The position numbers were made by a program, and so were the translations under genes. The notes beneath the pieces are model-generated. The model worked only from the letters and a program-made list of their open reading frames with translations, had not been told where the DNA came from and did no database searches. Positions 23,744 through 64,000 of a DNA stretch of 64,000 bases are shown piece by piece. The first letter of the stretch is position 1. Each line of letters starts with the position of its first letter. The stretch is from NCBI GenBank assembly GCA_964399295.1, contig CAYNQD010000002.1, positions 104,358 to 168,357 of the forward strand, read 5' to 3'. Source of the stretch: an uncultured Candidatus Saccharibacteria bacterium (GTDB lineage: Bacteria > Patescibacteriota > Minisyncoccia > Phycocordibacterales > UBA918).

Positions 23744-24832
23744 GTGAATGATAATTACGCCCCATCAAATTTTTTTGTTTCTTTTATAAAGAAGCATTGG
23801 CTGACACTATCTTTTTTGTTGGGGTTTGTTACTGATTTTTTATTGCTTAATCGGGTTGATGACAGATTGGATAATCTGGTTTTGCTTTTTCACGTCACTC
23901 TAGCTACTAGCTCGATTCTGCTTTTCTACGTTGGGGTGGCAGAAAGGGGTGGTGAATGGTGGTCGGCTAAATTGCGTCATTTAATGCCGGTTTTCATGCA
24001 ATATTCTTTCGGCGGTATTCTTTCGGGAATGCTGATATTTTATGGGCGCAGTGGTGATTTTTTTGCCAGTGCGCCGTTTTTTGTTTTGATAATTTCGGTG
24101 ATTGCCGTTAATGAATTGGTAAAAAAACAATCAAACAGACTGATTTATAATCTGGCGGTTTATTTTGTCGGTTTGTTTTCGTACTGCGTGTTGGTGGTGC
24201 CGGTGGTGATTGGGGATATGGGCGACATAATTTTTATTGGCAGCGGAATATTGGCTCTGCTGATACTGATTTTGGTGGTCAAAATTTTGTCTGTCATTAT
24301 TCCAAATTTTATTGCCCTGCAAAAACGAACTCTGGTTTTTGTGGTTGGCGTGTTGTATGTGTTATTTAACGGTTTTTATTTTTTTAATATTATTCCGCCG
24401 ATTCCGCTGTCGCTAACTGAGCTTAGTATTTATCAATCGGTGGAAAAAATTGGCAGCAATTATCACATCATCAAAGAGGAAACTTCGTGGTTTAAGCGGT
24501 TGTCTTTGGCGCCAATTACTTTTCATCCCCAAGCTGGACAGGGAGCCTCGTGTTTTGCCAGAGTCTACGCTCCCACAAAAATAACCGCCAATATTACCCA
24601 GCGCTGGGAGTATCTTGACAGCGACGGCAACTGGAATGAACACTACAAACAGGCTTATCGAATTACCGGCGAAAATAAAAACGGCTATCGTGGTTATACT
24701 AAAATCACCAGTATTCATAATGGAAAGTGGCGGTGCAGTGTCGAAAATGCTCGCGGGCAGGTTTTGGGGCGGAAGACTTTTATTGTTGACGATACCAGGC
24801 CACCGGAAGAACTAGTGACAATCGTTGAATAA
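23744..24832 (+). CDS. polytopic membrane protein with a C-terminal soluble domain; function unknown
   Basis: At least six predicted TM helices, then a Trp/Tyr-rich C-terminal domain (RWEYLDSDGNWNEHYKQAYRITGENKNGYRGY). Confidence 0.5.
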   Translation: MNDNYAPSNFFVSFIKKHWLTLSFLLGFVTDFLLLNRVDDRLDNLVLLFHVTLATSSILLFYVGVAERGGEWWSAKLRHLMPVFMQYSFGGILSGMLIFYGRSGDFFASAPFFVLIISVIAVNELVKKQSNRLIYNLAVYFVGLFSYCVLVVPVVIGDMGDIIFIGSGILALLILILVVKILSVIIPNFIALQKRTLVFVVGVLYVLFNGFYFFNIIPPIPLSLTELSIYQSVEKIGSNYHIIKEETSWFKRLSLAPITFHPQAGQGASCFARVYAPTKITANITQRWEYLDSDGNWNEHYKQAYRITGENKNGYRGYTKITSIHNGKWRCSVENARGQVLGRKTFIVDDTRPPEELVTIVE

Positions 24833-24849
24833 TTGGTTATTGTACGAAC

Positions 24850-26535
24850 ATGAAAACGGTGATTAGAACAGCTATTGATGAGGTTTTGGCGGAGCAAGGT
24901 TTTGCTGAGGTGAATTTTACCATTGAACATCCGGCTGATATTTCCCATGGTGATTATGCTTGCAACGTGGCTATGGTGCTGGCGCGGAGGGTGGGTAAAG
25001 CGCCGCGGCAAGTTGCGGAGCAACTTGCCGCGGCGCTCGCCGACCAAATCGAATACGTAGACCGCATTGAAATTGCCGGCCCCGGTTTTATAAATTTCTA
25101 TTTAGCTCGTGATTTTTTTGTCGGTGAAATAAGCCGCGCAAATGTAGAAAAAGAGTTCTGGGGGAGAAATGATTCTTGGACAGGAAAGAAAGTGTTGGTT
25201 GAATACACAGACCCGAATCCATTTAAGGAAATTCACATTGGACATCTCTTCACCAATACTGTCGGTGAAAGTATCGCTCGTCTTTTCATGATGAATGGTG
25301 CCGATACAAAGAGAATAAACTACCAAGGAGATGTTGGTCTGCATGTAGCTCATGCTATTTGGGGAATGAAGCAACTTGGGCTTTCAGTCGAGGATAACCT
25401 GACAGCTTCTGATCTTGGTAAAGCGTATGCTTTTGGTGCGACTGCTTATAAAAAAGATGAAGTGGCGCAGAGCGAAATACGTGCTCTCAATAAAATCATC
25501 TATGAAAGAACTGATGAAGAGATAAACACTATTTATGATAAGGGTCGGAAGATTTCATTGGACTACTTTGAAACAGTTTACAAACTCATTGATACTCAGT
25601 TTGACGAATATTTTTTTGAAAGTGAATCCGGACCAAAGGGAAAAAAATTAGTGCTTGATAACCCAGAGGTTTTTGTGGAAAGCAAAGGCGCATATATTTT
25701 TGAGGGAGAGAAATATGGTCTGCATACTCGTGTTTTCTTAAATAAGGAGGGCTTGCCGACTTATGAGGCAAAGGAGTTGGCTCTGGCAAAGATGAAGGAA
25801 GATAGATTTGGTCAATACGATTGGTCTGTTGTATCGACAGCTAATGAAGTAAATGAATATTTCAAAGTTTTGAAAAAAGCGATGAGTTTCATTTATCCGG
25901 AACTTGAAGCAAAAACCGAGCATGTTGGCCATGGAACGGTCAGGTTGACGACAGGAAAGATGTCATCAAGAACTGGTGATGTGATCCGGGCTTTAGATTT
26001 TATTGATGAAGTGTCCGCTATGGCGGCTGCTAAGATGGATGAAGGAGGGAAGGTTGTTCCGGATGATGCTTTGGCAAAGGACGTAGCTATTGCTGCCATC
26101 AAGTATGCGACTCTGAGAGGAAGTATTAAACAGGATTCAATTTTCGACAAAGAAAAATCGTTATCTTTTGAAGGTAATTCCGGTCCGTATTTGCAATACA
26201 CTCACGCTCGAATTGGTTCGGTGCTGGAAAAAGCCAAGCAAGCGGGATTGGTGGGGGACATCAAATCTGCTCCCGAAACTTCTTACGAGATAGAGCGATT
26301 GATTTATCAGTTTCCTGAGGTGATCGAGGCTGCGCTGGCAGAACGAGCGCCTCACAAGGTGGTGTGGTATTTGACGGAATTGGCCGGAGCTTTTAATTCT
26401 TTCTACGGACAAGAAAAAATCGCCGACGCAACTGACCCCCACGCTCCCTACAAGATGATGATAGCCAAAGCCGTACAAACAACACTCAAAAATGGTCTAT
26501 GGGTGCTAGGTATCAAAGCTCCGGAGCGGATGTAA
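24850..26535 (+). CDS. argS: arginyl-tRNA synthetase
   Basis: Class I HIGH variant (IHIGHLF). An Arg-RS N-terminal add-on domain. 561 aa. Confidence 0.9.
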   Translation: MKTVIRTAIDEVLAEQGFAEVNFTIEHPADISHGDYACNVAMVLARRVGKAPRQVAEQLAAALADQIEYVDRIEIAGPGFINFYLARDFFVGEISRANVEKEFWGRNDSWTGKKVLVEYTDPNPFKEIHIGHLFTNTVGESIARLFMMNGADTKRINYQGDVGLHVAHAIWGMKQLGLSVEDNLTASDLGKAYAFGATAYKKDEVAQSEIRALNKIIYERTDEEINTIYDKGRKISLDYFETVYKLIDTQFDEYFFESESGPKGKKLVLDNPEVFVESKGAYIFEGEKYGLHTRVFLNKEGLPTYEAKELALAKMKEDRFGQYDWSVVSTANEVNEYFKVLKKAMSFIYPELEAKTEHVGHGTVRLTTGKMSSRTGDVIRALDFIDEVSAMAAAKMDEGGKVVPDDALAKDVAIAAIKYATLRGSIKQDSIFDKEKSLSFEGNSGPYLQYTHARIGSVLEKAKQAGLVGDIKSAPETSYEIERLIYQFPEVIEAALAERAPHKVVWYLTELAGAFNSFYGQEKIADATDPHAPYKMMIAKAVQTTLKNGLWVLGIKAPERM

Positions 26536-26785: not shown

Positions 26786-27271
26786 CTCACCGCCTTTTTC
26801 TATTCCAAGACGGAGTAACAATATTATTTTTCTTCCTATCCAACCGAAGCTTTAAATTTGCGTCGACTGGAAACAAACTTATTAAAGATAAAAACTTAAC
26901 TTTAATTTGTTGCAATATGTCTATAAATAAACCCATGATATTTTTCCTCGTCTATTTGAAAAATGTAACTTGCCCTTCCCCTTATAACATAAAATTATCC
27001 AATCGGACAGTCTCAATTTGCACGGTCCGTTTTTTGTGTTAAACTAAGCCACATGTCTTTGAGAAAGATTGCTACTAATATTTGGTTTATTTTCTTTATT
27101 TTTACTCCTCGGGAGAAGGTTTTTGCTGTTTAGATTTTCAGAACAAGAAAGTAAAAGCCTCCTCCCAGGGAGGTTTTTGTTTTGGAGAATGTTTTTAAAT
27201 TATTGAAAATATTCTCCAGGATAAAATATAAAATCCTGGACGGTGGTTCTTTTAAATTTTTTGGAGACTCC

Positions 27272-28264
27272 AAAATGATTACGCAAAAAGAGTTTGGACC
27301 TTGGCAGTTGAATATCTCAGACGAGATAGAAATTGTATCCGGACACATTAAGGAAGATATAGAGAGGTTTATAAACCACGAATATCTTTCTGTAGCAATG
27401 AGTGACTATAAAAAAGATTATCCTTGTCATAATTTTGCTATGACCAAATGGGGTGTGCCGGCTCCAGTCATCAGGCTGGATATGGCTCCGTGTTCTGATG
27501 GTGAAGAGGTGTCTATCTATGAAGTCGAAGCCAACATAGCGGGGCCGGGGATTATGAAGAAATTTTTCCCGGAAAGTAATTTTTCCCGCGAAGTGGGTAA
27601 GGCTTTGTTGAATTTGGGTATATCAAAAGTAGGATATACAACCACGCCTTGTCGAAAAGAACAGTGGATGGACTTATCTATCCTGATGTCCTCTTTGAGA
27701 GAAGAGGGGATAGAGACTAAAAATGTGAATATCTACAATGGGGAGTCTGATGATTTTCCTCTTTGGCTCCGTTCGGGGCAAGAGGATATTGAGTTGATAT
27801 CTCCTCTTATGAACAGGTGTTTACTTTTGCATCATCATGGTGGTGGGCATAAGAATTATCTTCGGTCTCTATCGGGAGCCTTCCTGCTTTCAGAATTTTC
27901 ATCAGTTGATGAAGTTTTTGATCGCTTTCCGGATGGCTTTGTTCTAAAACCTTTTGGTGGCTGGGGAACCCGTGATGTTTATATTTGGGCAACTCGGCGG
28001 CCTTGGCGGGAAAAGTCCAGAACCAAAACCAGTCTTAACAAAAAAATTGGTTGCATATTTGAATCAAATTTAGGGATGGATTGGTTGGTGCAACCATTTA
28101 ATCCACCTCGTTTTGTTAACGGTATGTTTCGGATCTGGCGTTTATTTGCCGTCTGGGATGGGTCTGAATTTAAAATCATAGACTCTTTCTGGTCGGAAAG
28201 AAACTCTCTCCTAAACCACGGAGCTTCCGATACGGTTATTGGAAGCTTGAGGGTTGAGGTTTAG
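27272..28264 (+). CDS. ATP-grasp-like enzyme, function unknown
   Basis: ATP-grasp hallmarks (FVLKPFGGWGTRDVYIW, WLVQPFNPPRFVNGMFRIWRLFAVWDG, ...N...GAS). The ORF is open from TTG 27182. ATG 27272 has GGAG 8 nt upstream. Confidence 0.5.
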   Translation, partial: KMITQKEFGPWQLNISDEIEIVSGHIKEDIERFINHEYLSVAMSDYKKDYPCHNFAMTKWGVPAPVIRLDMAPCSDGEEVSIYEVEANIAGPGIMKKFFPESNFSREVGKALLNLGISKVGYTTTPCRKEQWMDLSILMSSLREEGIETKNVNIYNGESDDFPLWLRSGQEDIELISPLMNRCLLLHHHGGGHKNYLRSLSGAFLLSEFSSVDEVFDRFPDGFVLKPFGGWGTRDVYIWATRRPWREKSRTKTSLNKKIGCIFESNLGMDWLVQPFNPPRFVNGMFRIWRLFAVWDGSEFKIIDSFWSERNSLLNHGASDTVIGSLRVEV

Positions 28265-28350: not shown

Positions 28351-29265
28351 ATGAAATATTCACTGATGATACATGGTGGCGCCGGACTTATTAAAGATGA
28401 CACCGGTGTTTTAGAAGGTATAAAAAGAATTATGGTTGTGGGTGAGGAGAGACTGCTCGCAGGTGAAAGTGCTCTTGACGTGGTGGAGGGGTGTGTCAGT
28501 TTGTTGGAAAATGATGAGCATTTTAATGCTGGGCGCGGTGCGGTACTTAATAGTGAAGGAAAGGTTGAACTCGACGCTCTTATTATAGATGGCACCAATT
28601 TGGAAGCGGGAGCCGTAGCCGGAGTTAAAAATATTAAAAATCCCATAACCTTGGCTAGAAAAGTCATGGAAGAGAGTGAACACGTATTTTTGATTGGCGA
28701 AGGTGCTATGGTGTTTGCCAAGCAGGTAGGAGTAGAGCTTGAGTCGGAAGATTATTTTATTATTGAGAACCGAAAACTGCAGTGGGAAGAAGCCAAGAAA
28801 GCGGGCAAGGTAGTCTTGGATCATAGTGATCTGTCTGATAAAGGTTTAGAAAAAAAATACGGAACAGTGGGAGCAGTTGCTATGGATATGAAAGGCAATC
28901 TAGCTTCAGCGACTTCCACTGGCGGGATTGTAAATAAGAAGTTTGGTCGGGTGGGTGATACGCCGGTGGTTGGCGCCGGCGGTTTTGCCGATAATGAATC
29001 TTGCGCCGTATCGGCTACCGGATACGGAGAGCAAATGCTCAGGTTTTCTCTGGCAAAAACTATTAGTGATATTATTATTTATGAAAAGGTCGAGGCTCAA
29101 GAGGCAGCTGACAAGGCTATGGCTTTGTTTGTAAAAAAAGTGAATGGTTTGGGTGGGGTGATTGTAATTGACCGATTTGGTAACTGTGGCGTGTCTTATT
29201 CAACGAAAGGTATTATTTACGGACAAGTCCAGCAAGGTCAGGAGATAATAGTTGCTTTGAAATAA
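28351..29265 (+). CDS. isoaspartyl peptidase / L-asparaginase (Ntn-hydrolase, plant-type)
   Basis: MIHGGAG. Autoprocessing site GTVGAVAMD (Thr nucleophile). GAGGFADNE. Confidence 0.85.
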   Translation: MKYSLMIHGGAGLIKDDTGVLEGIKRIMVVGEERLLAGESALDVVEGCVSLLENDEHFNAGRGAVLNSEGKVELDALIIDGTNLEAGAVAGVKNIKNPITLARKVMEESEHVFLIGEGAMVFAKQVGVELESEDYFIIENRKLQWEEAKKAGKVVLDHSDLSDKGLEKKYGTVGAVAMDMKGNLASATSTGGIVNKKFGRVGDTPVVGAGGFADNESCAVSATGYGEQMLRFSLAKTISDIIIYEKVEAQEAADKAMALFVKKVNGLGGVIVIDRFGNCGVSYSTKGIIYGQVQQGQEIIVALK

Positions 29266-29404: not shown

Positions 29405-32400
29405 ATGTCTAAAAAATTAATTAGAGAAAAAGAGAATAAGAAGGGGGATTATGAGGTGAAAGAGGTTGTTCTTGGGCAGGACTTGGCTGTGGTGCCATTG
29501 GTGGAAAAGAGTGAGGTTGCTAAGCGAGAGGAGAGGGTGCAGGCCTTTTGGCAGGCGGAAGATATTTTTAATAAAAGCGTGTCTAAGCCGGCCGGTGATG
29601 AGCCAAAAGGTGATTTTATATTTTATGACGGGCCGCCGTTTGCTACCGGATTGCCTCACTATGGGCATATTTTGGCCGGTACTATGAAGGATGCCATTCC
29701 TAGGTTTTGGACAATGAATGGTTTTCGGGTGCGTCGGCGCTGGGGCTGGGACTGTCATGGCTTGCCGCTTGAAAATCTGATTGAGAAAAAACTTGGTTTG
29801 GCCAACAAAAAGGATATTGAAGAATTTGGTATTAAGAATTTTAACGAAGAGGCTCGAGAAGCCGTTTTGGAGTATCGTGATGATTGGCAGAAAATTATTC
29901 CGCGTCTGGGGCGTTTTGTGGACATGGACAATGACTACAAAACCATGGACAGTCCCTACACCGAAAGTGTGTGGTGGGTGTTTAAGCAGCTGCATGAAAA
30001 AGGGTTGGTCTATGAAGGCTTCAAGAGTATGCACATGTGTCCGCGTTGTGGCACTACCTTGTCCAATTTTGAGGTCAACTTAGGATACAAAGACGTAAAG
30101 GATATCGCTGTCACGGTACGTCTGCCACTCTTGGATAATGAAGGTAACGTGACCGACACCAGTCTTTTGGTATGGACGACCACTCCTTGGACGCTGCCGG
30201 GCAATATGGCGGCGGCGGTGCATCGTAATTTGGATTATGTAAAAGTAAAAGTGGAAACTGGGGGTGGGGCTGAGCTTATGATTTTGGCCAAGGGTCGTTT
30301 GGCGCAGTTGGGCGATTTGGTTTATGAATTAGTGGAAGAAATAAAAGGTGCGGATTTAATCGGACGTTCTTATCTGCCGCCATTTAACTACTTTGTCGAC
30401 CAAGATATCAAAGGTAAAGAAAACGCTTGGAAAATTTATCACGGTGATTTTGTGGAAGTGGGCGAGGAGGGTACTGGTGCGGTGCATATCGCACCAGCCT
30501 ATGGTGAAGACGATATGAACTTGGCCAAGGAAAATAATGTTCCCATTGCTCATCATGTGGATTTTGAGGGGCGGTTTATGCCGCTGGTGACTGATTTTGC
30601 GGGGATGTTGGTAAAACCAAAAGATGATGATGTGACTGGCGTATCGCACCTTGATGCTGACATTAAGGTTCTTAAATACCTGCAAGAAAGCGGTCGGGTT
30701 TTTAAGAAAGAAAATATCACCCACAGCTATCCGCATTGTTGGCGTGATGATACGCCTTTGCTCAATTACGCGACTACTTCTTGGTTTGTTAATGTGCCAA
30801 AAATCAAGGACGATTTAGTGGCCGCCAATAATAAAGTGAAGTGGGTGCCAGGTCATGTCGGCAGCAATCGCTTTGGGAATTGGCTGGAAGGCGCGCGTGA
30901 TTGGGCGATATCTAGGCAGCGTTATTGGGGCGCGCCGCTACCGATTTGGCGAAATAAAAAAACTGGCGAGTATAAGGTTTTTGGTTCGTTGGCGCAAATG
31001 CAAGAATACGTGCCTAAGAGTGGCAATACTTATTTTTTGATTCGGCATGGGGAATCTCAGTCTAATGTCGATCATATTTTGAACGGCCGTGTCGGGGTAG
31101 AAAATCCTTTGACCAATCTGGGAAAAGATCAGGTTATAAAAGCCGCCAAGGATATGCTTGGTGATATTGATTATATTTTTTATTCACCGTTGCAAAGAAC
31201 CAAAGAAACAGCCTTCATTATGGCCGAGACTCTTGGTTTATCAGAAGAACAGATCATAGAAGATGATCGCATCAGGGAATCCGGCATGGGTACTTTTGAA
31301 GGCCGGCCCAGCGCGGACAAAGAAAAGGAATTCAATCACCCTCAAGATGAATTTACTGAGACTGTCGGAGGAATGGAAACCTTGCTTGAGGTCAAGTCTC
31401 GCTTGGCGGAATTTATAAAGGACATTGATGCAAAATATAAAGGTAAGAAAATTGCCGTCGTTTCTCATGGAGATCCGCTGTGGATGTTGGAAGCTTTCTT
31501 GCAGGGGGCAACAATCGAGGAAGCGATTAAGCTTGAAGAAAATTATCCCAAAAACGCTGAAATAAGAAAACACACCTATACCTCTTTTCCGCACAATGAC
31601 AATTATGAATTGGATTATCACCGGCCTTATATCGACGAGATTGAGCTGTATGAAAATGGGGAAAAGCTGGAGCGAGTACCGGATGTTTTTGACTGCTGGT
31701 TTGAAAGCGGCTCGATGCCTTATGGTCAGAATCATTATCCGTTTGCCAACGAAGATGATTTTGAGCAAGAACGGTTTCCGGCAAAATTTATAGCGGAAGG
31801 ACTCGACCAAACTCGGGGGTGGTTTTATTCGATGTTGGTTTTGGGGGTAGCGCTTTTTGGCAAAAGCCCTTATGAGAACGTGATGGTCAATGGGCTCGTC
31901 TTGGCTGAAGACGGTAAAAAGATGAGTAAGTCTTTGCAGAATTATCCTGACCCGATGGAGTTGGTAAATCGCTTGGGAGCCGACGCGGTGCGCTTTTATC
32001 TATTGTCTTCACCGGCGGTGCGCGGGGAAGATTTGAATTTTTCTGAGAAGGAAGTCTTGGAATTGCAGCGTAAAAATATCGGCCGTTTGCACAATGTGTT
32101 GGCGATGTATGAGATGTTTGCACAGGAGGGGGGTGGGGTAAAGACGCGCCACGATTCCAATAATGTTTTGGATAAATGGATCGTGGCGCGTCTCAACCAG
32201 CTCATTACCGAAACTACCAACGGCTACAAATCCTACGAACTCGATAAAGCCACGCGTCCACTAACGGACTTCATTGATGATTTGTCGGTGTGGTATTTAC
32301 GGCGTTCGCGCGAGCGTTTGAAGGGTGATGATGAGGAAGACAAAGAGCTGGCTCTTGGTACTTTGCGCTTCGCGCTTTGTGGATTGGCCAAAGTGATGGC

Positions 32401-32989
32401 GCCGGCCATGCCTTTTTACGCCGAATATTTATATCGCGCTTTGCGCGCGGAAGATGAGCCCGAAAGCGTTCATCTCACGAGGTGGCCGGAAGGCGGCGTA
32501 GTCGATGAAGTTTTGCTTGAGGATATGAAAAAAACCAGAGAATTTGTCTCCATGTCGCTCGAGGCTCGCGCTAAGGCTGGTATAAAAGTGCGCCAGCCAC
32601 TGAAAACCATCTCGATTAACGAGTGTCTCAATCCCGAATTTCTTGCTGTTGTCGCCGAAGAAGTAAATGTGAAAACTGTAAAAGTAAATGAGAATCAGGC
32701 TGAGGCGGTGATTTTGGATACCGATATTACCCCCGAGTTAAAAATGGAGGGCGATGCCCGTGAACTAATCAGGACAATTCAAGATTTACGCAAGGAAGCT
32801 AACCTAAAACCTCAGGATGCAATTGTTCTAACGCTAGATACTTCTAAAGCTGGAAAGGAGACCGTCATGACTTTGTCGGAGATGATAAGAAAAGTCGTCG
32901 GCGCGCAGGAAATTGTTTTTACTCAGACCGAAGGCAAGGAAATAAAAATTGGAGACAATTCCTTTATTATTTCTATCCGAAAAATCTAA
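29405..32989 (+). CDS. ileS: isoleucyl-tRNA synthetase (type 2) carrying an inserted histidine-phosphatase (PGAM-family) domain
   Basis: HIGH variant GPPFATGLPHYGHIL. KMSKS. CP1/editing region. An in-frame insertion YFLIRHGESQSN...YSPLQRTKETA...ESGMGTFEG...VVSHGDPL (about nt 31031-31550) between the PIWRNKKTGE and DYHRPYIDE...DCWFESGSMPY blocks. 1194 aa. Confidence 0.9.
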   Translation: MSKKLIREKENKKGDYEVKEVVLGQDLAVVPLVEKSEVAKREERVQAFWQAEDIFNKSVSKPAGDEPKGDFIFYDGPPFATGLPHYGHILAGTMKDAIPRFWTMNGFRVRRRWGWDCHGLPLENLIEKKLGLANKKDIEEFGIKNFNEEAREAVLEYRDDWQKIIPRLGRFVDMDNDYKTMDSPYTESVWWVFKQLHEKGLVYEGFKSMHMCPRCGTTLSNFEVNLGYKDVKDIAVTVRLPLLDNEGNVTDTSLLVWTTTPWTLPGNMAAAVHRNLDYVKVKVETGGGAELMILAKGRLAQLGDLVYELVEEIKGADLIGRSYLPPFNYFVDQDIKGKENAWKIYHGDFVEVGEEGTGAVHIAPAYGEDDMNLAKENNVPIAHHVDFEGRFMPLVTDFAGMLVKPKDDDVTGVSHLDADIKVLKYLQESGRVFKKENITHSYPHCWRDDTPLLNYATTSWFVNVPKIKDDLVAANNKVKWVPGHVGSNRFGNWLEGARDWAISRQRYWGAPLPIWRNKKTGEYKVFGSLAQMQEYVPKSGNTYFLIRHGESQSNVDHILNGRVGVENPLTNLGKDQVIKAAKDMLGDIDYIFYSPLQRTKETAFIMAETLGLSEEQIIEDDRIRESGMGTFEGRPSADKEKEFNHPQDEFTETVGGMETLLEVKSRLAEFIKDIDAKYKGKKIAVVSHGDPLWMLEAFLQGATIEEAIKLEENYPKNAEIRKHTYTSFPHNDNYELDYHRPYIDEIELYENGEKLERVPDVFDCWFESGSMPYGQNHYPFANEDDFEQERFPAKFIAEGLDQTRGWFYSMLVLGVALFGKSPYENVMVNGLVLAEDGKKMSKSLQNYPDPMELVNRLGADAVRFYLLSSPAVRGEDLNFSEKEVLELQRKNIGRLHNVLAMYEMFAQEGGGVKTRHDSNNVLDKWIVARLNQLITETTNGYKSYELDKATRPLTDFIDDLSVWYLRRSRERLKGDDEEDKELALGTLRFALCGLAKVMAPAMPFYAEYLYRALRAEDEPESVHLTRWPEGGVVDEVLLEDMKKTREFVSMSLEARAKAGIKVRQPLKTISINECLNPEFLAVVAEEVNVKTVKVNENQAEAVILDTDITPELKMEGDARELIRTIQDLRKEANLKPQDAIVLTLDTSKAGKETVMTLSEMIRKVVGAQEIVFTQTEGKEIKIGDNSFIISIRKI

Positions 32990-33571
32990 ATGTCCTACCA
33001 AACCTACATCACTGAGGCTCTGGTGTGTGGAAGTTTTTTGCACAATACCGCTGATAAGGTGTTTGTGTTGTTTACCCGCGAGGCCGGAATGCTCTACGCT
33101 ACCGCCAGAAGCGTGCGCGAAGAAAGGTCAAAACAGCGTCAGTCCATGCAGGAATTTTCTTTGGTGCGCGTGTCTCTAATCAAAGGCAAGCAGGGATGGA
33201 GAGTGGGCAGCGTGGAAGCCGGCCCTAATTATTTTGCTTTAACTCAAAGTCGTGAGGCTCGCGGTAGTGTGGTCTTGGTTTTCAAAACCCTGAGACGTTT
33301 TATTCATGGGGAAGACCCGCATGCCGATTTATTTGATTTTTGTATTTGGTCTTTGCAGAGATTAGTCGCTGAAATTGAAGATAGAAAATTCATGGAGTTG
33401 CTGATCCAGCTCAAGCTTATGATTGAGCTGGGATATGTTGATGAAAGTCTGGTGCCTAAGAATTTCAAGATAAATCTCTCGTCAGTCGATGTCATCCAAT
33501 ATAAAAACGAACTGTCGGCGGAAAAAATAGAAAAATTGCTCAAAAAAGCAGTTGAGAATAGCCATCTATAG
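32990..33571 (+). CDS. recO: RecO-like DNA repair protein (short form)
   Basis: ATG immediately after the ileS stop. The N-terminal OB-fold-like region resembles RecO. Only 193 aa. Confidence 0.4.
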   Translation: MSYQTYITEALVCGSFLHNTADKVFVLFTREAGMLYATARSVREERSKQRQSMQEFSLVRVSLIKGKQGWRVGSVEAGPNYFALTQSREARGSVVLVFKTLRRFIHGEDPHADLFDFCIWSLQRLVAEIEDRKFMELLIQLKLMIELGYVDESLVPKNFKINLSSVDVIQYKNELSAEKIEKLLKKAVENSHL

Positions 33572-33606: not shown

Positions 33607-35580
33607 ATGTCAGGAATAAAAGATCAAGAAAATATTGATGAGCTTAGGAAGCGTCTTTATGACCGTGGCTGGGAAGAGAGTGGGATGAAAAGACACGAAC
33701 TAACCAAGGCGGCCTTTGACGTGGCTAGAGGCTGGGGCGATAATACCAACAAACCCAAGCCGGAACCAATTTCCGAGTTCACGCAATCTTTGGAGGTGGT
33801 TTCTGATATTCCAGCTAAAAATGATTTTCCTATAGTTGATCCGGCTCCACTAGTGATAAAACCCAAAGGAAAAAGCCGATCCTACCGCAAAATAATTTTG
33901 CTGTTTAGCCTGGGTATATTTATTTTATCTTGTCTGTTTTCTATATTTCATCTCTTTTTCGGTGGCAACCAAATTTCCGCCAGCAACATAGACATCTCCA
34001 TAAACGCTCCTTTCGCGGTGGCGGGTGGTGACGTTGTTCCCATTCAGGTTGGTATTACCAATCAAAATTCAGTACCGATTGAGTCGGCTACTTTGATTGT
34101 AAATTACCCGACGGGAACAAAATCAGTTGAAGAAGGGGGGCGTGATTTGTATGAAGAAAGATTGTCGCTTAACGATATTGAAGCCGGTGGGGTGATAAAT
34201 TTGCCGATACAGGTAATTTTATTTGGTGAAGAAAATGAAGACAAGGAGATAAAGGCTACAATTGAATATCGGGTCAGTAATTCCAACGGCACTTTCTTCA
34301 AAGAAGCCGCTCCGGTAACGGTAAAAATAAATTCATCACCGCTGGTGATAAGGACTGAGTCGGTCGATAAAATCTCTTCCGGGCAAGACTTAGAAATAAC
34401 TTTAACCCTGATATCAAACGCGCAAAACCCGATGCGCAATGTCTTGGTGCAGGCAAATTATCCGAACAGTTTTTCTTTTATTAGTTCTGATCCACAGACA
34501 TCGGGCGGACAAAATACCTGGATATTTGATGAGATTTTACCCAACAAAGCCTACACCATAAAGCTAAAAGGCCTAGTGACAGGCTTGACCAACGAAACCT
34601 ATGAAATGCAGTTTAAAGCCGGCAATCCAAGGGCGGACAACCAATCAGAAATGGGTTCAACTTTAACTCAGACCAAAATAAATTACATAATAGAAAGGCC
34701 GTTTATAGACGTGGTGGTTGGTATAAATGGTGATCGAGACGGTTCTGCGATTTTAAATTCCGGAGTCGAAGCCAATGTGGTGGTCTTGGTGAAGAATACC
34801 TTAGATGAAGCTGTGTATGACATGCGGGTGGAATTAGTTCCAAATGGCAATCTCATCAATGATAATCGGTTATCCATAAAAAGTGGTTTTTATGATTCCG
34901 CAACAAAAAGAATCAACTGGGAAATTGCCGGCATGCCTTCACTGCAACAGGTTAGACCAGGTGAGAGTAGGGAGTTCGCTTTTTCTATTTCACCGGATGT
35001 TGGCCAGAGTACCGGCTCCTTTGATGTTTCAGCTAAGGTTTTCGCGCGCCGCGTGAATGAAGCTAGTGCCAGTGAAAGTTTGATTGGAACAGCCATTGCT
35101 GAGGCTAAGTATTCTTCGGTAATAAATCTGTCCGGTGAGGTTGGTCGCGACAACTCAGCTAGCGGCCCGATTCCGCCGATTGCCGGACAAACTACCAATT
35201 ATACAATTATCTTGGTTGCCAATGCTGGCGTGAATGATATTTCCGGCGGCGTGGTGACGACTTCACTACCACAGCATGTTAATTGGCTAAATATGACCAA
35301 CGGTGATGGCGTTATTGAGTATAATCCGGTTTCAAAACAAATAAGATGGGATGTGGGCAGTATTTCTGCTCGTGAAAGCAAGCAAATAAAGATGCAAGTT
35401 GGCCTCTTGCCAAGTGTCACGCATATTGGTAGAACATTAGTGTTGCTTGAATCACAGGATTTCACGGCAACAGACCGATTTACGGGGGTATCTTTAAGAG
35501 CAGGTAATACTAGGTTTGATAATAAATTATCCGGAGAATTAGGTTTTTCTGAAGATAACGGAATAGTTCGAGCTGAGTAA
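33607..35580 (+). CDS. single-pass membrane protein with a large extracytoplasmic, repeat-rich beta domain; function unknown
   Basis: Cytoplasmic N-terminus, one TM (IILLFSLGIFILSCLF), then about 540 aa that are Ser/Thr/Asn/Gly/Val-rich with Ig-like periodicity. Confidence 0.5.
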   Translation: MSGIKDQENIDELRKRLYDRGWEESGMKRHELTKAAFDVARGWGDNTNKPKPEPISEFTQSLEVVSDIPAKNDFPIVDPAPLVIKPKGKSRSYRKIILLFSLGIFILSCLFSIFHLFFGGNQISASNIDISINAPFAVAGGDVVPIQVGITNQNSVPIESATLIVNYPTGTKSVEEGGRDLYEERLSLNDIEAGGVINLPIQVILFGEENEDKEIKATIEYRVSNSNGTFFKEAAPVTVKINSSPLVIRTESVDKISSGQDLEITLTLISNAQNPMRNVLVQANYPNSFSFISSDPQTSGGQNTWIFDEILPNKAYTIKLKGLVTGLTNETYEMQFKAGNPRADNQSEMGSTLTQTKINYIIERPFIDVVVGINGDRDGSAILNSGVEANVVVLVKNTLDEAVYDMRVELVPNGNLINDNRLSIKSGFYDSATKRINWEIAGMPSLQQVRPGESREFAFSISPDVGQSTGSFDVSAKVFARRVNEASASESLIGTAIAEAKYSSVINLSGEVGRDNSASGPIPPIAGQTTNYTIILVANAGVNDISGGVVTTSLPQHVNWLNMTNGDGVIEYNPVSKQIRWDVGSISARESKQIKMQVGLLPSVTHIGRTLVLLESQDFTATDRFTGVSLRAGNTRFDNKLSGELGFSEDNGIVRAE

Positions 35581-62764: not shown

Positions 62765-64000
<1,236 letters not shown>

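Follow-up and report, generated by a model that had tools for sequence, protein, structure and literature searches.

The isoleucyl-tRNA synthetase (IleRS) encoded in the window, the 64,000-nucleotide stretch of DNA analyzed here, carries a complete histidine phosphatase domain nested in its catalytic core. Comparison with the sequences of related genomes suggests that this phosphatase is a dedicated accessory, functionally coupled to the synthetase, and not a passenger; we favor this reading with some reserve. The identity and the architecture of the gene, here termed ileS::hp, are practically certain. The gene and its parts are as follows:

29405 to 32989, plus strand, stop codon included: ileS::hp, type-2 IleRS with nested histidine phosphatase, 1194 amino acids (open reading frame, TIGR00392, Pfam)
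29405 to 31009, plus strand: IleRS residues 1-535, with the first Rossmann half, the CP1 editing domain and the 'YWGAPLPIW' strand (Pfam, alignment, invariant columns)
29657 to 29668, plus strand: HYGH motif of the first Rossmann half, residue 85
within residues 1-535, plus strand: CP1 editing domain with the motifs WTTTPWT and GTGAVHIAP
30950 to 31009, plus strand: N-terminal half of the former Zn-knuckle hairpin, residues 516-535, cysteines lost
31010 to 31612, plus strand: entire insert, residues 536-736, consisting of N-linker (VPKSGN), phosphatase domain and C-linker (F.P.PHNDNYEL) (alignment gap)
31034 to 31540, plus strand: His_Phos_1 (PF00300) core, residues 544-712 (Pfam)
31043 to 31048 (R547-H548), 31196 to 31198 (R598), 31277 to 31279 (E625) and 31466 to 31468 (H688), plus strand: catalytic residues, to which N554 also belongs
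31613 to 32986, plus strand: IleRS residues 737-1194, with the C-terminal half of the hairpin (DYHRPYIDEIELYENGEKLERVPDV), the second Rossmann half (DCWFESGSMPY), the anticodon-binding domain and DUF5915 (Pfam, alignment to solved IleRS, motif scan)
31919 to 31933, plus strand: KMSKS motif, residue 839

A preliminary description of this DNA had reported a continuous ileS reading frame of 1194 codons with intact IleRS motifs. Both observations hold, since the reading frame from 29405 to 32989 on the plus strand is single and uninterrupted, and HYGH at residue 85, KMSKS at residue 839 and the editing motifs were all found. The protein scores 877.1 bits against the NCBIfam ileS model TIGR00392 (cut-off 621.4) and stays under every cut-off of the valS, leuS and metG models. 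Pfam detects tRNA-synt_1 in two pieces (residues 45-534 and a C-terminal piece), Anticodon_1 at residues 923-1068 and PF19302 (DUF5915), a type-2 C-terminal domain without zinc motif, at residues 1075-1193. Type-2 bacterial IleRSs are the eukaryote-like, mupirocin-resistant type of the enzyme. The solved structures used for comparison were those of Priestia megaterium IleRS2 (PDB 8C8U/8C8V), Thermus thermophilus IleRS (1ILE) and the yeast and human cytoplasmic enzymes. Searches with phmmer relate ileS::hp to solved IleRSs with E-values of 1e-194 to 1e-213, and the core, CP1 editing, anticodon-binding and zinc-free C-terminal domains are common to ileS::hp and solved type-2 IleRS. The AF2 model of the full-length protein (pLDDT 83.2) matched only synthetases in Foldseek, the insert-only model being searched separately; target-normalised TM-scores to solved IleRSs were 0.79-0.86 (0.79 for 8C8V and 0.86 for 1ILE). 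Assignment to the MupA/MupB resistance enzymes was rejected, as ileS::hp reaches 668-682 bits against a cut-off of 1900.

The insert lies between the 'YWGAPLPIW' strand and 'DVFDCWFESG'. Alignment to the solved enzymes pairs residues 39-535 of the query with residues 13-491 of human IleRS and resumes at query residue 737 and human residue 498, so that about 200 extra residues stand where the human enzyme, like that of yeast, has about 6. T. thermophilus IleRS has a short Zn knuckle at this connective-peptide hairpin, and the phosphatase had been described as standing in place of such a knuckle. The loss of the CxxC...CxxC cysteines is real, as no cysteine occurs between residues 445 and 764. 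The replacement is not: the domain is nested inside the hairpin, the non-cysteine portions of which are still present in the window protein, and 15 of 21 distant insert-bearing IleRSs keep both halves of the motif, with 'PIWxCxxC' before the insert and 'CxxC' behind it. To judge from these sequences, the four knuckle cysteines were lost in the sub-clade of the window, later than the insertion. Eukaryotic cytoplasmic IleRSs likewise lack the knuckle cysteines.

Misassembly can be excluded, as independent assemblies agree and the architecture is spread over a whole clade. A chimeric assembly had already been argued against from the lack of flanking repeats and from the codon usage of the insert, and each of these points was borne out. 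The protein encoded in an independent Logan assembly (P0001) has the same architecture and is identical at 1189 of 1194 positions (99.6%). No flanking repeats were found around the insert beyond a single 12-nt chance pair, and the relative synonymous codon usage of insert and remaining gene correlates with r = 0.52, a value that equal-sized control pieces also give (0.35-0.68). The sole pointer to a chimera, a frameshifted gene pair or a pseudogene is the slightly lower GC3 of the insert (0.418 versus 0.495 in the rest of the gene). Against such an artefact, the probability of which we put close to nil, stand the data above, the unbroken reading frame and the occurrence of the same architecture in hundreds of NCBI, JGI, ENA and Logan homologues, some of them on 0.6-1.1 Mb contigs. 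We also rejected the idea of a mobile or selfish element, because flanking repeats are absent and the catalytic residues are under selection.

The phosphatase segment, first placed at 31031-31550 on account of histidine-phosphatase hallmarks, was recovered by the profile search as a PF00300 match at residues 544-712, nucleotides 31034-31540 (E = 6.4e-31; 108 bits, cut-off 21.7; profile positions 2-171 of 194). In the full-length model this region forms a confidently folded domain with pLDDT values of 89-98 over residues 510-760, insert linkers included. The motifs RHGES at 547, LQRTKET at 596, ESGMGTFEG at 625 and SHGDP at 687 provide the complete catalytic set of branch-1 histidine phosphatases (Arg-His...Asn...Arg...Glu...His), and the insert adopts the alpha/beta fold with a cap. 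With HIGH, KMSKS, editing site and phosphatase set all intact, ileS::hp is predicted to have three catalytic centres, for aminoacylation, editing and phosphoryl transfer. The closest folds of the insert are the small-molecule phosphomonoesterases PspA (phosphoserine phosphatase, 4IJ5), PhoE (1H2E), GpgP (glucosyl-3-phosphoglycerate phosphatase, 6S2Q), CobC (alpha-ribazole-5'-phosphate phosphatase, 6E4B) and a riboflavin-pathway HFP (9MMH). By its model, the insert belongs to the small capped branch-1 phosphomonoesterases of about 170 amino acids resembling PspA, PhoE, CobC and GpgP. What sets the present phosphatase apart from these relatives is its place within a class Ia synthetase or in a gene next to one.

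Membership in the named families was rejected in each case. The domain reaches 65.8-70.9 bits for CobC (TIGR03162, cut-off 162.9) and 48.5-53.8 bits for PspA (NF045917, cut-off 350), and high fold resemblance to these two enzymes does not identify the substrate. Among the models for dPGM the best, NF038349 (dPGM_arch), gives 84.9-86.8 bits against 225, and the GpmA and GpmB models remain far under their cut-offs. The motifs specific for dPGM are RHG.S.WN, ERHYG and HGNS; in their places the insert has RHGESQSN, ESGMG and SHGDP. SixA was dismissed as well, since the TIGR00249 cut-off is not reached and the fold is not the compact, cap-less one.

The search among relatives, which the preliminary description had called for, returned the PF00300-in-IleRS architecture in all 120 closest homologues. 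A GTDB scan with an 11-sequence insert alignment as query found insert-bearing IleRSs in at least 119 species genomes of Parcubacteria/Paceibacteria, a lower bound that also understates the taxonomic breadth. In the 120 homologues the insert measures 197-211 amino acids, and its mean identity is only 39-42% compared with about 80% in the Rossmann core. R547, H548, N554, R598, E625, R666 and H688 are nevertheless invariant in 120 of 120, which points to selection on catalysis. About 73 of 80 GTDB loci retain the whole catalytic set of six (R, H, N, R, E, H). Invariant too in these homologues are the IleRS motif columns W257-T263, G356-H361, D370 and D763-G769 and the linker residues N541, P729, N731 and L736. 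Conserved and confidently modelled as they are, the linkers appear to mount the phosphatase rigidly and not floppily.

The neighborhood of ileS::hp in the window contains the following genes:

24829 to 26532 (stop-to-stop ORF limits), plus strand: argS, arginyl-tRNA synthetase (Pfam Arg_tRNA_synt_N, tRNA-synt_1d, DALR_1)
27182 to 28264: unknown ORF between argS and ileS
28351 to 29265: Asparaginase_2 gene between argS and ileS
32990 to 33571, plus strand: recO-like gene directly 3' of ileS (Pfam RecO_N, 33.7 bits)
33607 to 35580, plus strand: DUF11/CLIPPER-repeat protein, a further member of the frame (Pfam DUF11)

In the window, argS and ileS::hp are set apart by two inserted genes. The order ileS-recO recurs in the loci L081, L085, L091 and L094, and in L081, L085 and L094 a CLIPPER gene of 558-615 amino acids then follows recO. 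Because the argS...ileS-recO-DUF11 frame is the same as that around the insert-less ileS of sister lineages, ileS::hp can be identified from its sequence context as the orthologous, housekeeping type-2 IleRS gene of a bacterium of the Parcubacteria/Paceibacteria (CPR).

The strongest evidence for coupling had been overlooked in the preliminary description: a stand-alone phosphatase gene (hp) beside ileS, insertion into valyl-tRNA synthetase (ValRS), and multi-copy forms. Sister lineages have a separate gene of about 190 codons for this phosphatase family, the closest stand-alone form, between argS and an insert-less ileS, in the order argS-hp-ileS-(x)-recO-DUF11 with a spacer of 1-7 nt or a 19-nt overlap. 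The gene lies just downstream of argS in 8 of 8 sampled relatives, and the insert-less ileS is adjacent or at most 3 kb away at all six stand-alone loci with a visible downstream side. At a Portnoybacteria insert-less ileS, picked without regard to the phosphatase, hp overlaps the ileS start codon. Insert-bearing loci have argS upstream in 52 of 60 informative cases (33 of these with a gap of up to 600 nt), and none of the 60 has a separate hp gene. The lineage of the window follows this pattern, argS...ileS::hp-recO, with the domain inside ileS and no separate hp gene. The nested domain and the adjacent gene thus seem to make up a Rosetta-stone pair, and the position of hp beside ileS in sister lineages indicates that synthetase and phosphatase are probably working partners. 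In a best-hit analysis, the stand-alone copies are intermingled with the nested ones. The partnership has exceptions, as no hp gene was found near some insert-less IleRS genes (P0510) or within 7 kb of two insert-less ValRS loci, translation with code 25 included; the Rosetta-stone pattern accordingly applies to IleRS only.

In ValRSs of Gracilibacteria/Peregrinibacteria a phosphatase occupies the homologous site behind 'WG..IP' in 71 of 120 relatives. Some synthetases contain 2-4 copies at up to three sites, the extra ones at the CP2 site in ValRS and at the junction of SC-fold and anticodon-binding domain in IleRS. Copies inside one protein are only 26-36% identical to each other and must have diverged anciently, which rules out recent intragenic duplication as their origin. 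As far as the sequences extend, the six catalytic residues are kept in all copies of the multi-domain proteins but one. These forms bear on a non-catalytic role, in which the domain would brace the structure, mediate dimerisation or sense a phosphorylated metabolite allosterically, standing in for the stabilisation lost with the zinc. Histidine phosphatases commonly dimerise, so tandem copies could form intramolecular pseudo-dimers, and the sub-clade of the window kept the insert and lost all four knuckle cysteines. We nevertheless judge this role very improbable: the catalytic constellation is complete in nearly every copy although the rest has diverged to about 30-40% identity, and zinc ligands and insert coexist in many relatives.

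A weightier alternative sees in the domain a common housekeeping phosphatase for small molecules (acting, for example, on phosphoserine, on sugar phosphates or in a cofactor pathway) with no mechanistic tie to aminoacylation. In streamlined CPR genomes it would have entered a constitutive argS-hp-ileS operon first and would then have been absorbed by a protruding, insertion-tolerant hairpin, its expression being guaranteed. The metabolic nature of the nearest structural relatives suits such an origin, which we consider a minority reading to be taken seriously. It has to contend with several observations. No fusion examined is terminal: all sit within the catalytic core, and such nesting, the harder event, has come about at three core-proximal sites in two paralogous synthetases. 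The linkers are well conserved and modelled with confidence, and the adjacency of hp and ileS, with 1-nt spacers or overlaps, persists beside quite divergent IleRS clades of 31-50% identity.

If the phosphatase is coupled to aminoacylation, the conserved linkers would fix it rigidly at the rim of the aminoacylation cleft, as expected from the general topology of Rossmann-fold connective peptides, and it would act on a ligand bound in, or departing from, this cleft. A phospho-His548 intermediate would form, with E625 as acid/base, and a terminal phosphomonoester would be hydrolysed. As substrate class we prefer adenosine nucleotides, or nucleotide ends, that carry an added phosphate, for example AMP-type inhibitors or by-products with a 2'/3' phosphate, or a tRNA whose A76 is 3'-(pyro)phosphorylated. 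Such a clearing or end-healing step would keep the site or the tRNA end chargeable. This specific choice of substrate is doubtful. The nearest structural relatives of the modelled insert are metabolic small-molecule phosphatases, and the phosphatase domain of the window is mildly acidic (pI 4.8 and net charge -12, with a family median pI of about 6) and thus does not look like an RNA-binding module. A tRNA-end or nucleotide-clearing role also leaves unexplained why only IleRS (in other lineages ValRS) is the host and why up to four diverged copies are retained. The preliminary description had suggested, as possible roles, phosphoesterase chemistry on adenylate analogues, Ap4A-type products or tRNA 3' ends, or a regulatory function. 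Detoxification of antibiotics that mimic aminoacyl-adenylates, by analogy with GNAT/MccE, was rejected, as these are phosphodiesters, phosphoramidate diesters or sulfamoyl compounds and not terminal phosphomonoesters. A role as pyrophosphatase or Ap4A hydrolase is unsupported, and we know of no branch-1 histidine phosphatase with such a role.

Phosphorylation of the KMSKS loop by HipA/HipT-type kinases inactivates GltX and TrpS. A phosphatase acting in cis could counter such toxin kinases, or eukaryote-like ones, and strip an inhibitory phosphate from the synthetase (for example from a serine of the KMSKS loop) or from a bound translation factor; we regard this as unlikely. On the broadest version of the coupled reading, which we offer tentatively and think possible though not probable, class Ia synthetases of a major bacterial radiation would have a third, so far unrecognised catalytic activity, a phosphatase at the mouth of the aminoacylation site that is required for charging. 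Whether built into the catalytic core or made from a partner gene under translational coupling, it would have arisen more than once in IleRS and ValRS, and it could act on a blocked tRNA 3' end, on a phosphorylated adenosine-nucleotide inhibitor or by-product, or on the enzyme's own phosphorylated KMSKS loop.

The preliminary description knew of no aminoacyl-tRNA synthetase with a fused PGAM/SixA-like phosphatase, and our literature search gave no match either: in the searchable literature, no description of a synthetase-histidine phosphatase fusion or of a synthetase-phosphatase gene pairing was found. Compared by model only, the NCBIfam family NF040702 ('ileS_w_GNAT') is a precedent for a bacterial IleRS with an added catalytic domain that modifies small molecules. 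Its extra domain is a GNAT and not a histidine phosphatase, and ileS::hp, matching it through the common IleRS part, is not a member (324 bits, cut-off 1999). In the Rv2228c-type RNase H/acid phosphatases (NF005567, PRK07238) a CobC-like branch-1 phosphatase is fused to a nucleic-acid enzyme. NF005567 is the second-best NCBIfam match of the insert (76 bits, far under the cut-off of 326), but there the fusion is terminal and the partner is another one, whereas the phosphatase of ileS::hp is nested. The CCA-adding enzyme of E. coli contains an HD-domain phosphatase/2',3'-cyclic phosphodiesterase that is thought to heal phosphorylated tRNA ends. As a tRNA 3'-end enzyme with its own phosphoesterase it is a conceptual analogue of the model we prefer; its HD fold is unrelated to histidine phosphatases, and the phosphoesterase resides in another host enzyme.

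Few enzymes have been catalogued as well as the aminoacyl-tRNA synthetases, and their extra domains for editing, tRNA binding or signalling each opened new biology. Here, a phosphatase with intact catalytic residues sits inside the core of IleRS, and elsewhere of ValRS, in a large share of the Parcubacteria/Gracilibacteria portion of the CPR. If it is coupled to the synthetase, ultra-small, host-dependent bacteria would have a translation requirement not known so far, and class I synthetases would gain a new accessory chemistry; with a third activity required for charging, clearing or repair would join synthesis and editing in the repertoire of these enzymes. If it is uncoupled, the family would be an unusually clean natural case of repeated nested insertion into an essential enzyme, still of value to protein engineering and to the study of genome streamlining. 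In the NCBI pipeline, proteins with the insert receive only the name 'class I tRNA ligase family protein', and their relatives without it are called isoleucine--tRNA ligase; under the generic name, ileS and valS could be overlooked in CPR annotations.

The ileS gene of the window (here ileS::hp) encodes a type-2 isoleucyl-tRNA synthetase (IleRS). Pfam searches located a histidine phosphatase domain within it, as the preliminary description had proposed.

Gene and Pfam domains of the window IleRS
29405-32989, + strand: ileS::hp, single unbroken ORF, 1194 aa
Residues 45-534 plus a C-terminal part: tRNA-synt_1, class I catalytic domain, split in two
Residues 544-712: His_Phos_1 (PF00300), E = 6.4e-31, 108 bits (gathering score 21.7)
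Residues 923-1068: Anticodon_1
Residues 1075-1193: DUF5915, the type-2 C-terminal domain

The reading frame is uninterrupted and its motifs were found where expected, with HYGH starting at residue 85, RHGES at 547, LQRTKET at 596, ESGMGTFEG at 625, SHGDP at 687 and KMSKS at 839. The protein scores 877 bits against the NCBIfam ileS equivalog TIGR00392 (cut-off 621), and no other NCBIfam synthetase model scored above its own cut-off. The polypeptide carries intact aminoacylation, editing and phosphatase centres. When it was aligned to solved IleRS, residues 39-535 corresponded to residues 13-491 of the human enzyme and residue 737 onward to 498 onward, showing that about 200 residues (the insert, residues 536-736) occupy the place of about six in human and yeast IleRS. 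The AlphaFold2 model of the full protein (mean pLDDT 83.2, pTM 0.71) shows a confidently folded insert region (residues 510-760 at 89-98), the sole ill-defined internal segment being the mobile KMSKS loop (residues 832-844). Compared with the type-2 IleRS structures 8C8V, 8WND and 1ILE, the model reaches target-normalised TM scores of 0.79-0.86.

An artefact is excluded as the source of ileS::hp. An independent assembly from another source encodes a protein (P0001) of unchanged architecture that shares 1189 of the 1194 residues, and PF00300 lies within the synthetase in all of the best 120 database homologues (63-72% identity, 1156-1226 aa), which were drawn from NCBI, JGI, ENA and Logan, several on contigs of 0.4-1.1 Mb. 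Earlier statements that the insert lacks flanking repeats and shares the codon usage of its gene also held: no repeats were found at its edges, and its synonymous codon usage correlates with the remainder of ileS at r = 0.52 (control pieces 0.35-0.68), with a slightly lower GC3 (0.418 vs 0.495). Four of the five differences between the window protein and P0001 fall inside the 201-residue insert (positions 646, 653, 674 and 685), consistent with faster evolution of the insert than of the synthetase.

The insertion site was located in an alignment of the window protein, seven close homologues and 21 diverse full-length insert-bearing IleRS (50%-identity cluster representatives). In the nomenclature used for P. 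megaterium IleRS2 (PMC10485003), this region forms the end of the connective peptide, after which the catalytic (HUP) core continues. Insert-less relatives have an intact four-cysteine zinc knuckle here, with about 53 residues from the strand to the WF.SG motif, and comparison with them places the entry point after a short helix (GSL.EL..) and before (L)D.HRPYID. Both knuckle halves are kept in 15 of the 21 distant insert-bearing IleRS, PIWxCxxC before the insert and CxxC after it, the latter just before R.P.V.D.WF.SG. The preliminary description had placed the phosphatase "in place of" the knuckle. It was right that the cysteines are absent from the window protein (none occurs between residues 445 and 764), but the retained halves and the entry within the hairpin show that the domain is nested in the knuckle and was not substituted for it. 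The four cysteines were lost secondarily in the window's sub-clade; eukaryotic cytoplasmic IleRS likewise lack them. The other IleRS zinc site, in the CP1 hinge (nt ~30038-30748), keeps three cysteines in the window (C212, C215 and C445). Its fourth ligand position is occupied by Asp (D448) in the window; the 120 homologues divide into 64 with Cys and 56 with Asp.

The insert measures 197-211 aa across the 120 homologues and is on average 39-42% identical to the query, compared with about 80% for the Rossmann core. Nevertheless, R547, H548, N554, R598, E625, R666 and H688 are invariant (120/120). Invariant catalytic residues in an otherwise divergent insert indicate selection for catalysis rather than for a scaffold, which makes a non-catalytic brace or sensor a very improbable reading. 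Modelled alone (pLDDT 91.7), the insert is nearest to capped small-molecule phosphomonoesterases.

Structural relatives of the insert model (structure comparison score)
PspA, 4IJ5: 21.9
Glucosyl-3-phosphoglycerate phosphatase, 6S2Q: 21.2
PhoE, 1H2E: 20.9
Riboflavin-pathway histidine-family phosphatase, 9MMH: 20.7
CobC, 6E4B: 19.5
SixA, protein phosphatase: 15.3
PGAM5, protein phosphatase: 14.4
Sts-2, protein phosphatase: 13.6

All curated NCBIfam functional models (dPGM, GpmB, CobC, PspA and SixA) stayed below cut-off, so the insert belongs to the superfamily but lies outside every characterised subfamily. Part of the cap (profile positions ~90-121) is missing from the phosphatase domain of two Zambryskibacteria/Paceibacterota IleRS (L043:4555-7818 and L064:4534-7863), and the stand-alone protein P0188 is shortened in the same way.

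The same family also occurs as a stand-alone gene (hp). All eight stand-alone relatives whose loci were looked up lie directly downstream of argS, and an insert-less type-2 ileS follows hp in all six loci with a visible downstream side.

Position of ileS relative to hp
P0196: same strand, spacer 1 nt
P0223: same strand, spacer 1 nt
P0195: same strand, spacer 7 nt
P0149 and P0211: opposite strand, directly adjoining
P0398: 3 kb away

Beyond ileS these loci continue, contig permitting, with a small ORF and recO, and in two of them (L081 and L085) with a DUF11/CLIPPER protein. Two insert-less ileS genes were picked blind to the phosphatase. The one from Portnoybacteria lies in the order argS-hp-ileS-recO-DUF11, with hp overlapping the start of ileS by 19 nt; the locus of the other (P0510) reads rpsL-rpsG-fusA-ileS-cysS and has no hp. 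Where the insert is present, argS lies upstream on the same strand in 52 of 60 informative loci, in 33 of them with a gap of at most 600 nt, which leaves no room for a separate hp gene, and no second phosphatase ORF was found at any of 80 insert-bearing loci. The window has the same frame.

Neighbours of ileS::hp in the window
24829-26532: argS
27182-28264: unknown ORF, 360 aa, TTG start, no Pfam match
28351-29265: Asparaginase_2/isoaspartyl peptidase
32990-33571: recO
33607-35580: DUF11 protein

The common argS...ileS-recO-DUF11 frame shows that ileS::hp is, judged by gene order, the orthologous housekeeping ileS. One phosphatase family thus occurs in two states, encoded next to ileS as a translationally coupled neighbour or built into the synthetase as a domain, and such alternation is the classical mark of proteins linked in function (a Rosetta-stone pair). 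Two genes are interpolated between argS and ileS in the window, whereas relatives have nothing or a stand-alone phosphatase gene there.

A search with the insert against 1.84 billion representative proteins gave 10,887 matches at E <= 1e-3, of which 990 reached E <= 1e-10. About 97 of the best 150 have IleRS-like flanks, and about 45 are true stand-alone proteins (160-260 aa, 32-42% identical to the insert) that start with Met and end just past the domain. Scanning one genome per species, we found insert-bearing IleRS in at least 119 GTDB species, a few bins among them probably mislabelled, named Parcubacteria/Paceibacterota and including Taylor-, Zambryski-, Adler-, Nomura-, Colwell-, Wolfe- and Yanofskybacteria and Minisyncoccia. 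The best named homologues of the window IleRS are from Candidatus Nomurabacteria. The window has a GC content of 0.43 and carries tRNA-His and tRNA-Pro; a bacterial 23S rRNA gene begins at 62773 and runs past the window end (64000). In the 62 kb ahead of it Rfam detected no 16S rRNA gene, so the rRNA genes may be unlinked.

One match with IleRS-like flanks, P0126, is actually a valyl-tRNA synthetase (ValRS; 381-411 bits with valS models, 199 with ileS) and contains at least four phosphatase domains. On T. thermophilus ValRS (1GAX), one of these maps to the CP2 region, between residues 363 and 377, and the others after residue 418 (IPAWYCE), homologous to the IleRS knuckle site. The domain is present in 71 of the best 120 relatives of P0126 (P0126 and P0271-P0389), as a single copy in 58, as two copies in 11, and as three and four copies in one protein each. 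It usually stands immediately after the W.ISRQ..WG..IP strand, some proteins having a CP2-site copy. The domain-bearing ValRS are from sources named Gracilibacteria and Peregrinibacteria, and a Nomurabacteria ValRS lacks it. Some IleRS also have several copies: P0164, P0173, P0175 and P0232 have tandem doublets at the knuckle, and P0221, P0257, P0259 and P0263 (~1380-1420 aa) a second copy where the SC-fold meets the anticodon-binding domain (flanked by query residues ~907 and 918-922). As far as the sequences extend, all copies but one in multi-copy proteins have the catalytic R-H-N-R-E-H set. Copies inside one protein are only 26-36% identical, which rejects recent duplication as their origin; second-position copies across proteins share 42-45%, and together these values point to old, vertically inherited architectures. 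ValRS copies group with each other, and stand-alone and IleRS-nested copies interleave, leaving the adjacent-nested transition without polarity. The ValRS relatives P0294, P0329 and P0303 contain other extra Pfam domains (PF04480, DUF559, endonuclease-like; PF00216, HU-type DNA-binding), which suggests that these CPR synthetases are general hot spots for domain gain.

The phenomenon is real, robust and much wider than the single IleRS first described. Host and guest are standard, a type-2 IleRS and a branch-1 histidine phosphatase; new are their combination and its anatomy, nested in the zinc knuckle of the catalytic core, in two paralogous synthetases at three sites, in single to quadruple copies and with a matching adjacent-gene state in sister lineages. 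Partial precedents are an IleRS carrying a GNAT domain (NF040702) and the Rv2228c RNase H/CobC-like phosphatase fusion (NF005567); the window protein falls outside both families. Full-text searches of the literature turned up no account of a fusion between a synthetase and a histidine phosphatase. Insert-bearing sequences are already public with automatic Pfam labels. At NCBI such IleRS and ValRS have no more specific name than "class I tRNA ligase family protein", whereas their insert-less relatives are called isoleucine--tRNA ligase. Surveys of metabolism or genome completeness in CPR bacteria could thus overlook ileS or valS.

Branch-1 histidine phosphatases hydrolyse terminal phosphomonoesters via a phospho-histidine intermediate, with a conserved Glu as acid/base, and the connective peptides of class I synthetases cluster round the active-site mouth. 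Our comparisons tie the phosphatase consistently to ileS (or valS), as neighbour or insert, and show it mounted by conserved linkers at loops leaving the C-terminal edge of the Rossmann sheet. We infer that the domain serves the synthetase as an accessory and would remove phosphate from something bound in, or emerging from, the aminoacylation cleft. As substrate class we tentatively favour phosphorylated adenosine nucleotides or nucleotide ends, for example 2'/3'-phospho-AMP-type compounds or 3'-(pyro)phosphorylated tRNA A76; the E. coli CCA-adding enzyme, with its HD-domain phosphoesterase, offers an analogous logic. Against this proposal, the domain has an acidic pI (4.8 in the window protein; median of the family ~6), the nearest structural relatives of the insert are metabolic enzymes, and neither the restriction to IleRS or ValRS hosts nor the keeping of up to four diverged copies is explained. 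The main rival, a possible though doubtful one, is a metabolic housekeeping phosphatase merely riding on a constitutive translation gene. A cis-acting protein phosphatase undoing Hip-type phosphorylation of the KMSKS loop is improbable. Since a natural separated pair (hp and ileS) and a natural fused form both exist, function is directly testable. At one locus (L083:6001-8543) the stand-alone phosphatase is followed by genes for a single-domain response-regulator receiver and a hemerythrin and then by ileS, a weak hint of a phospho-relay connection.
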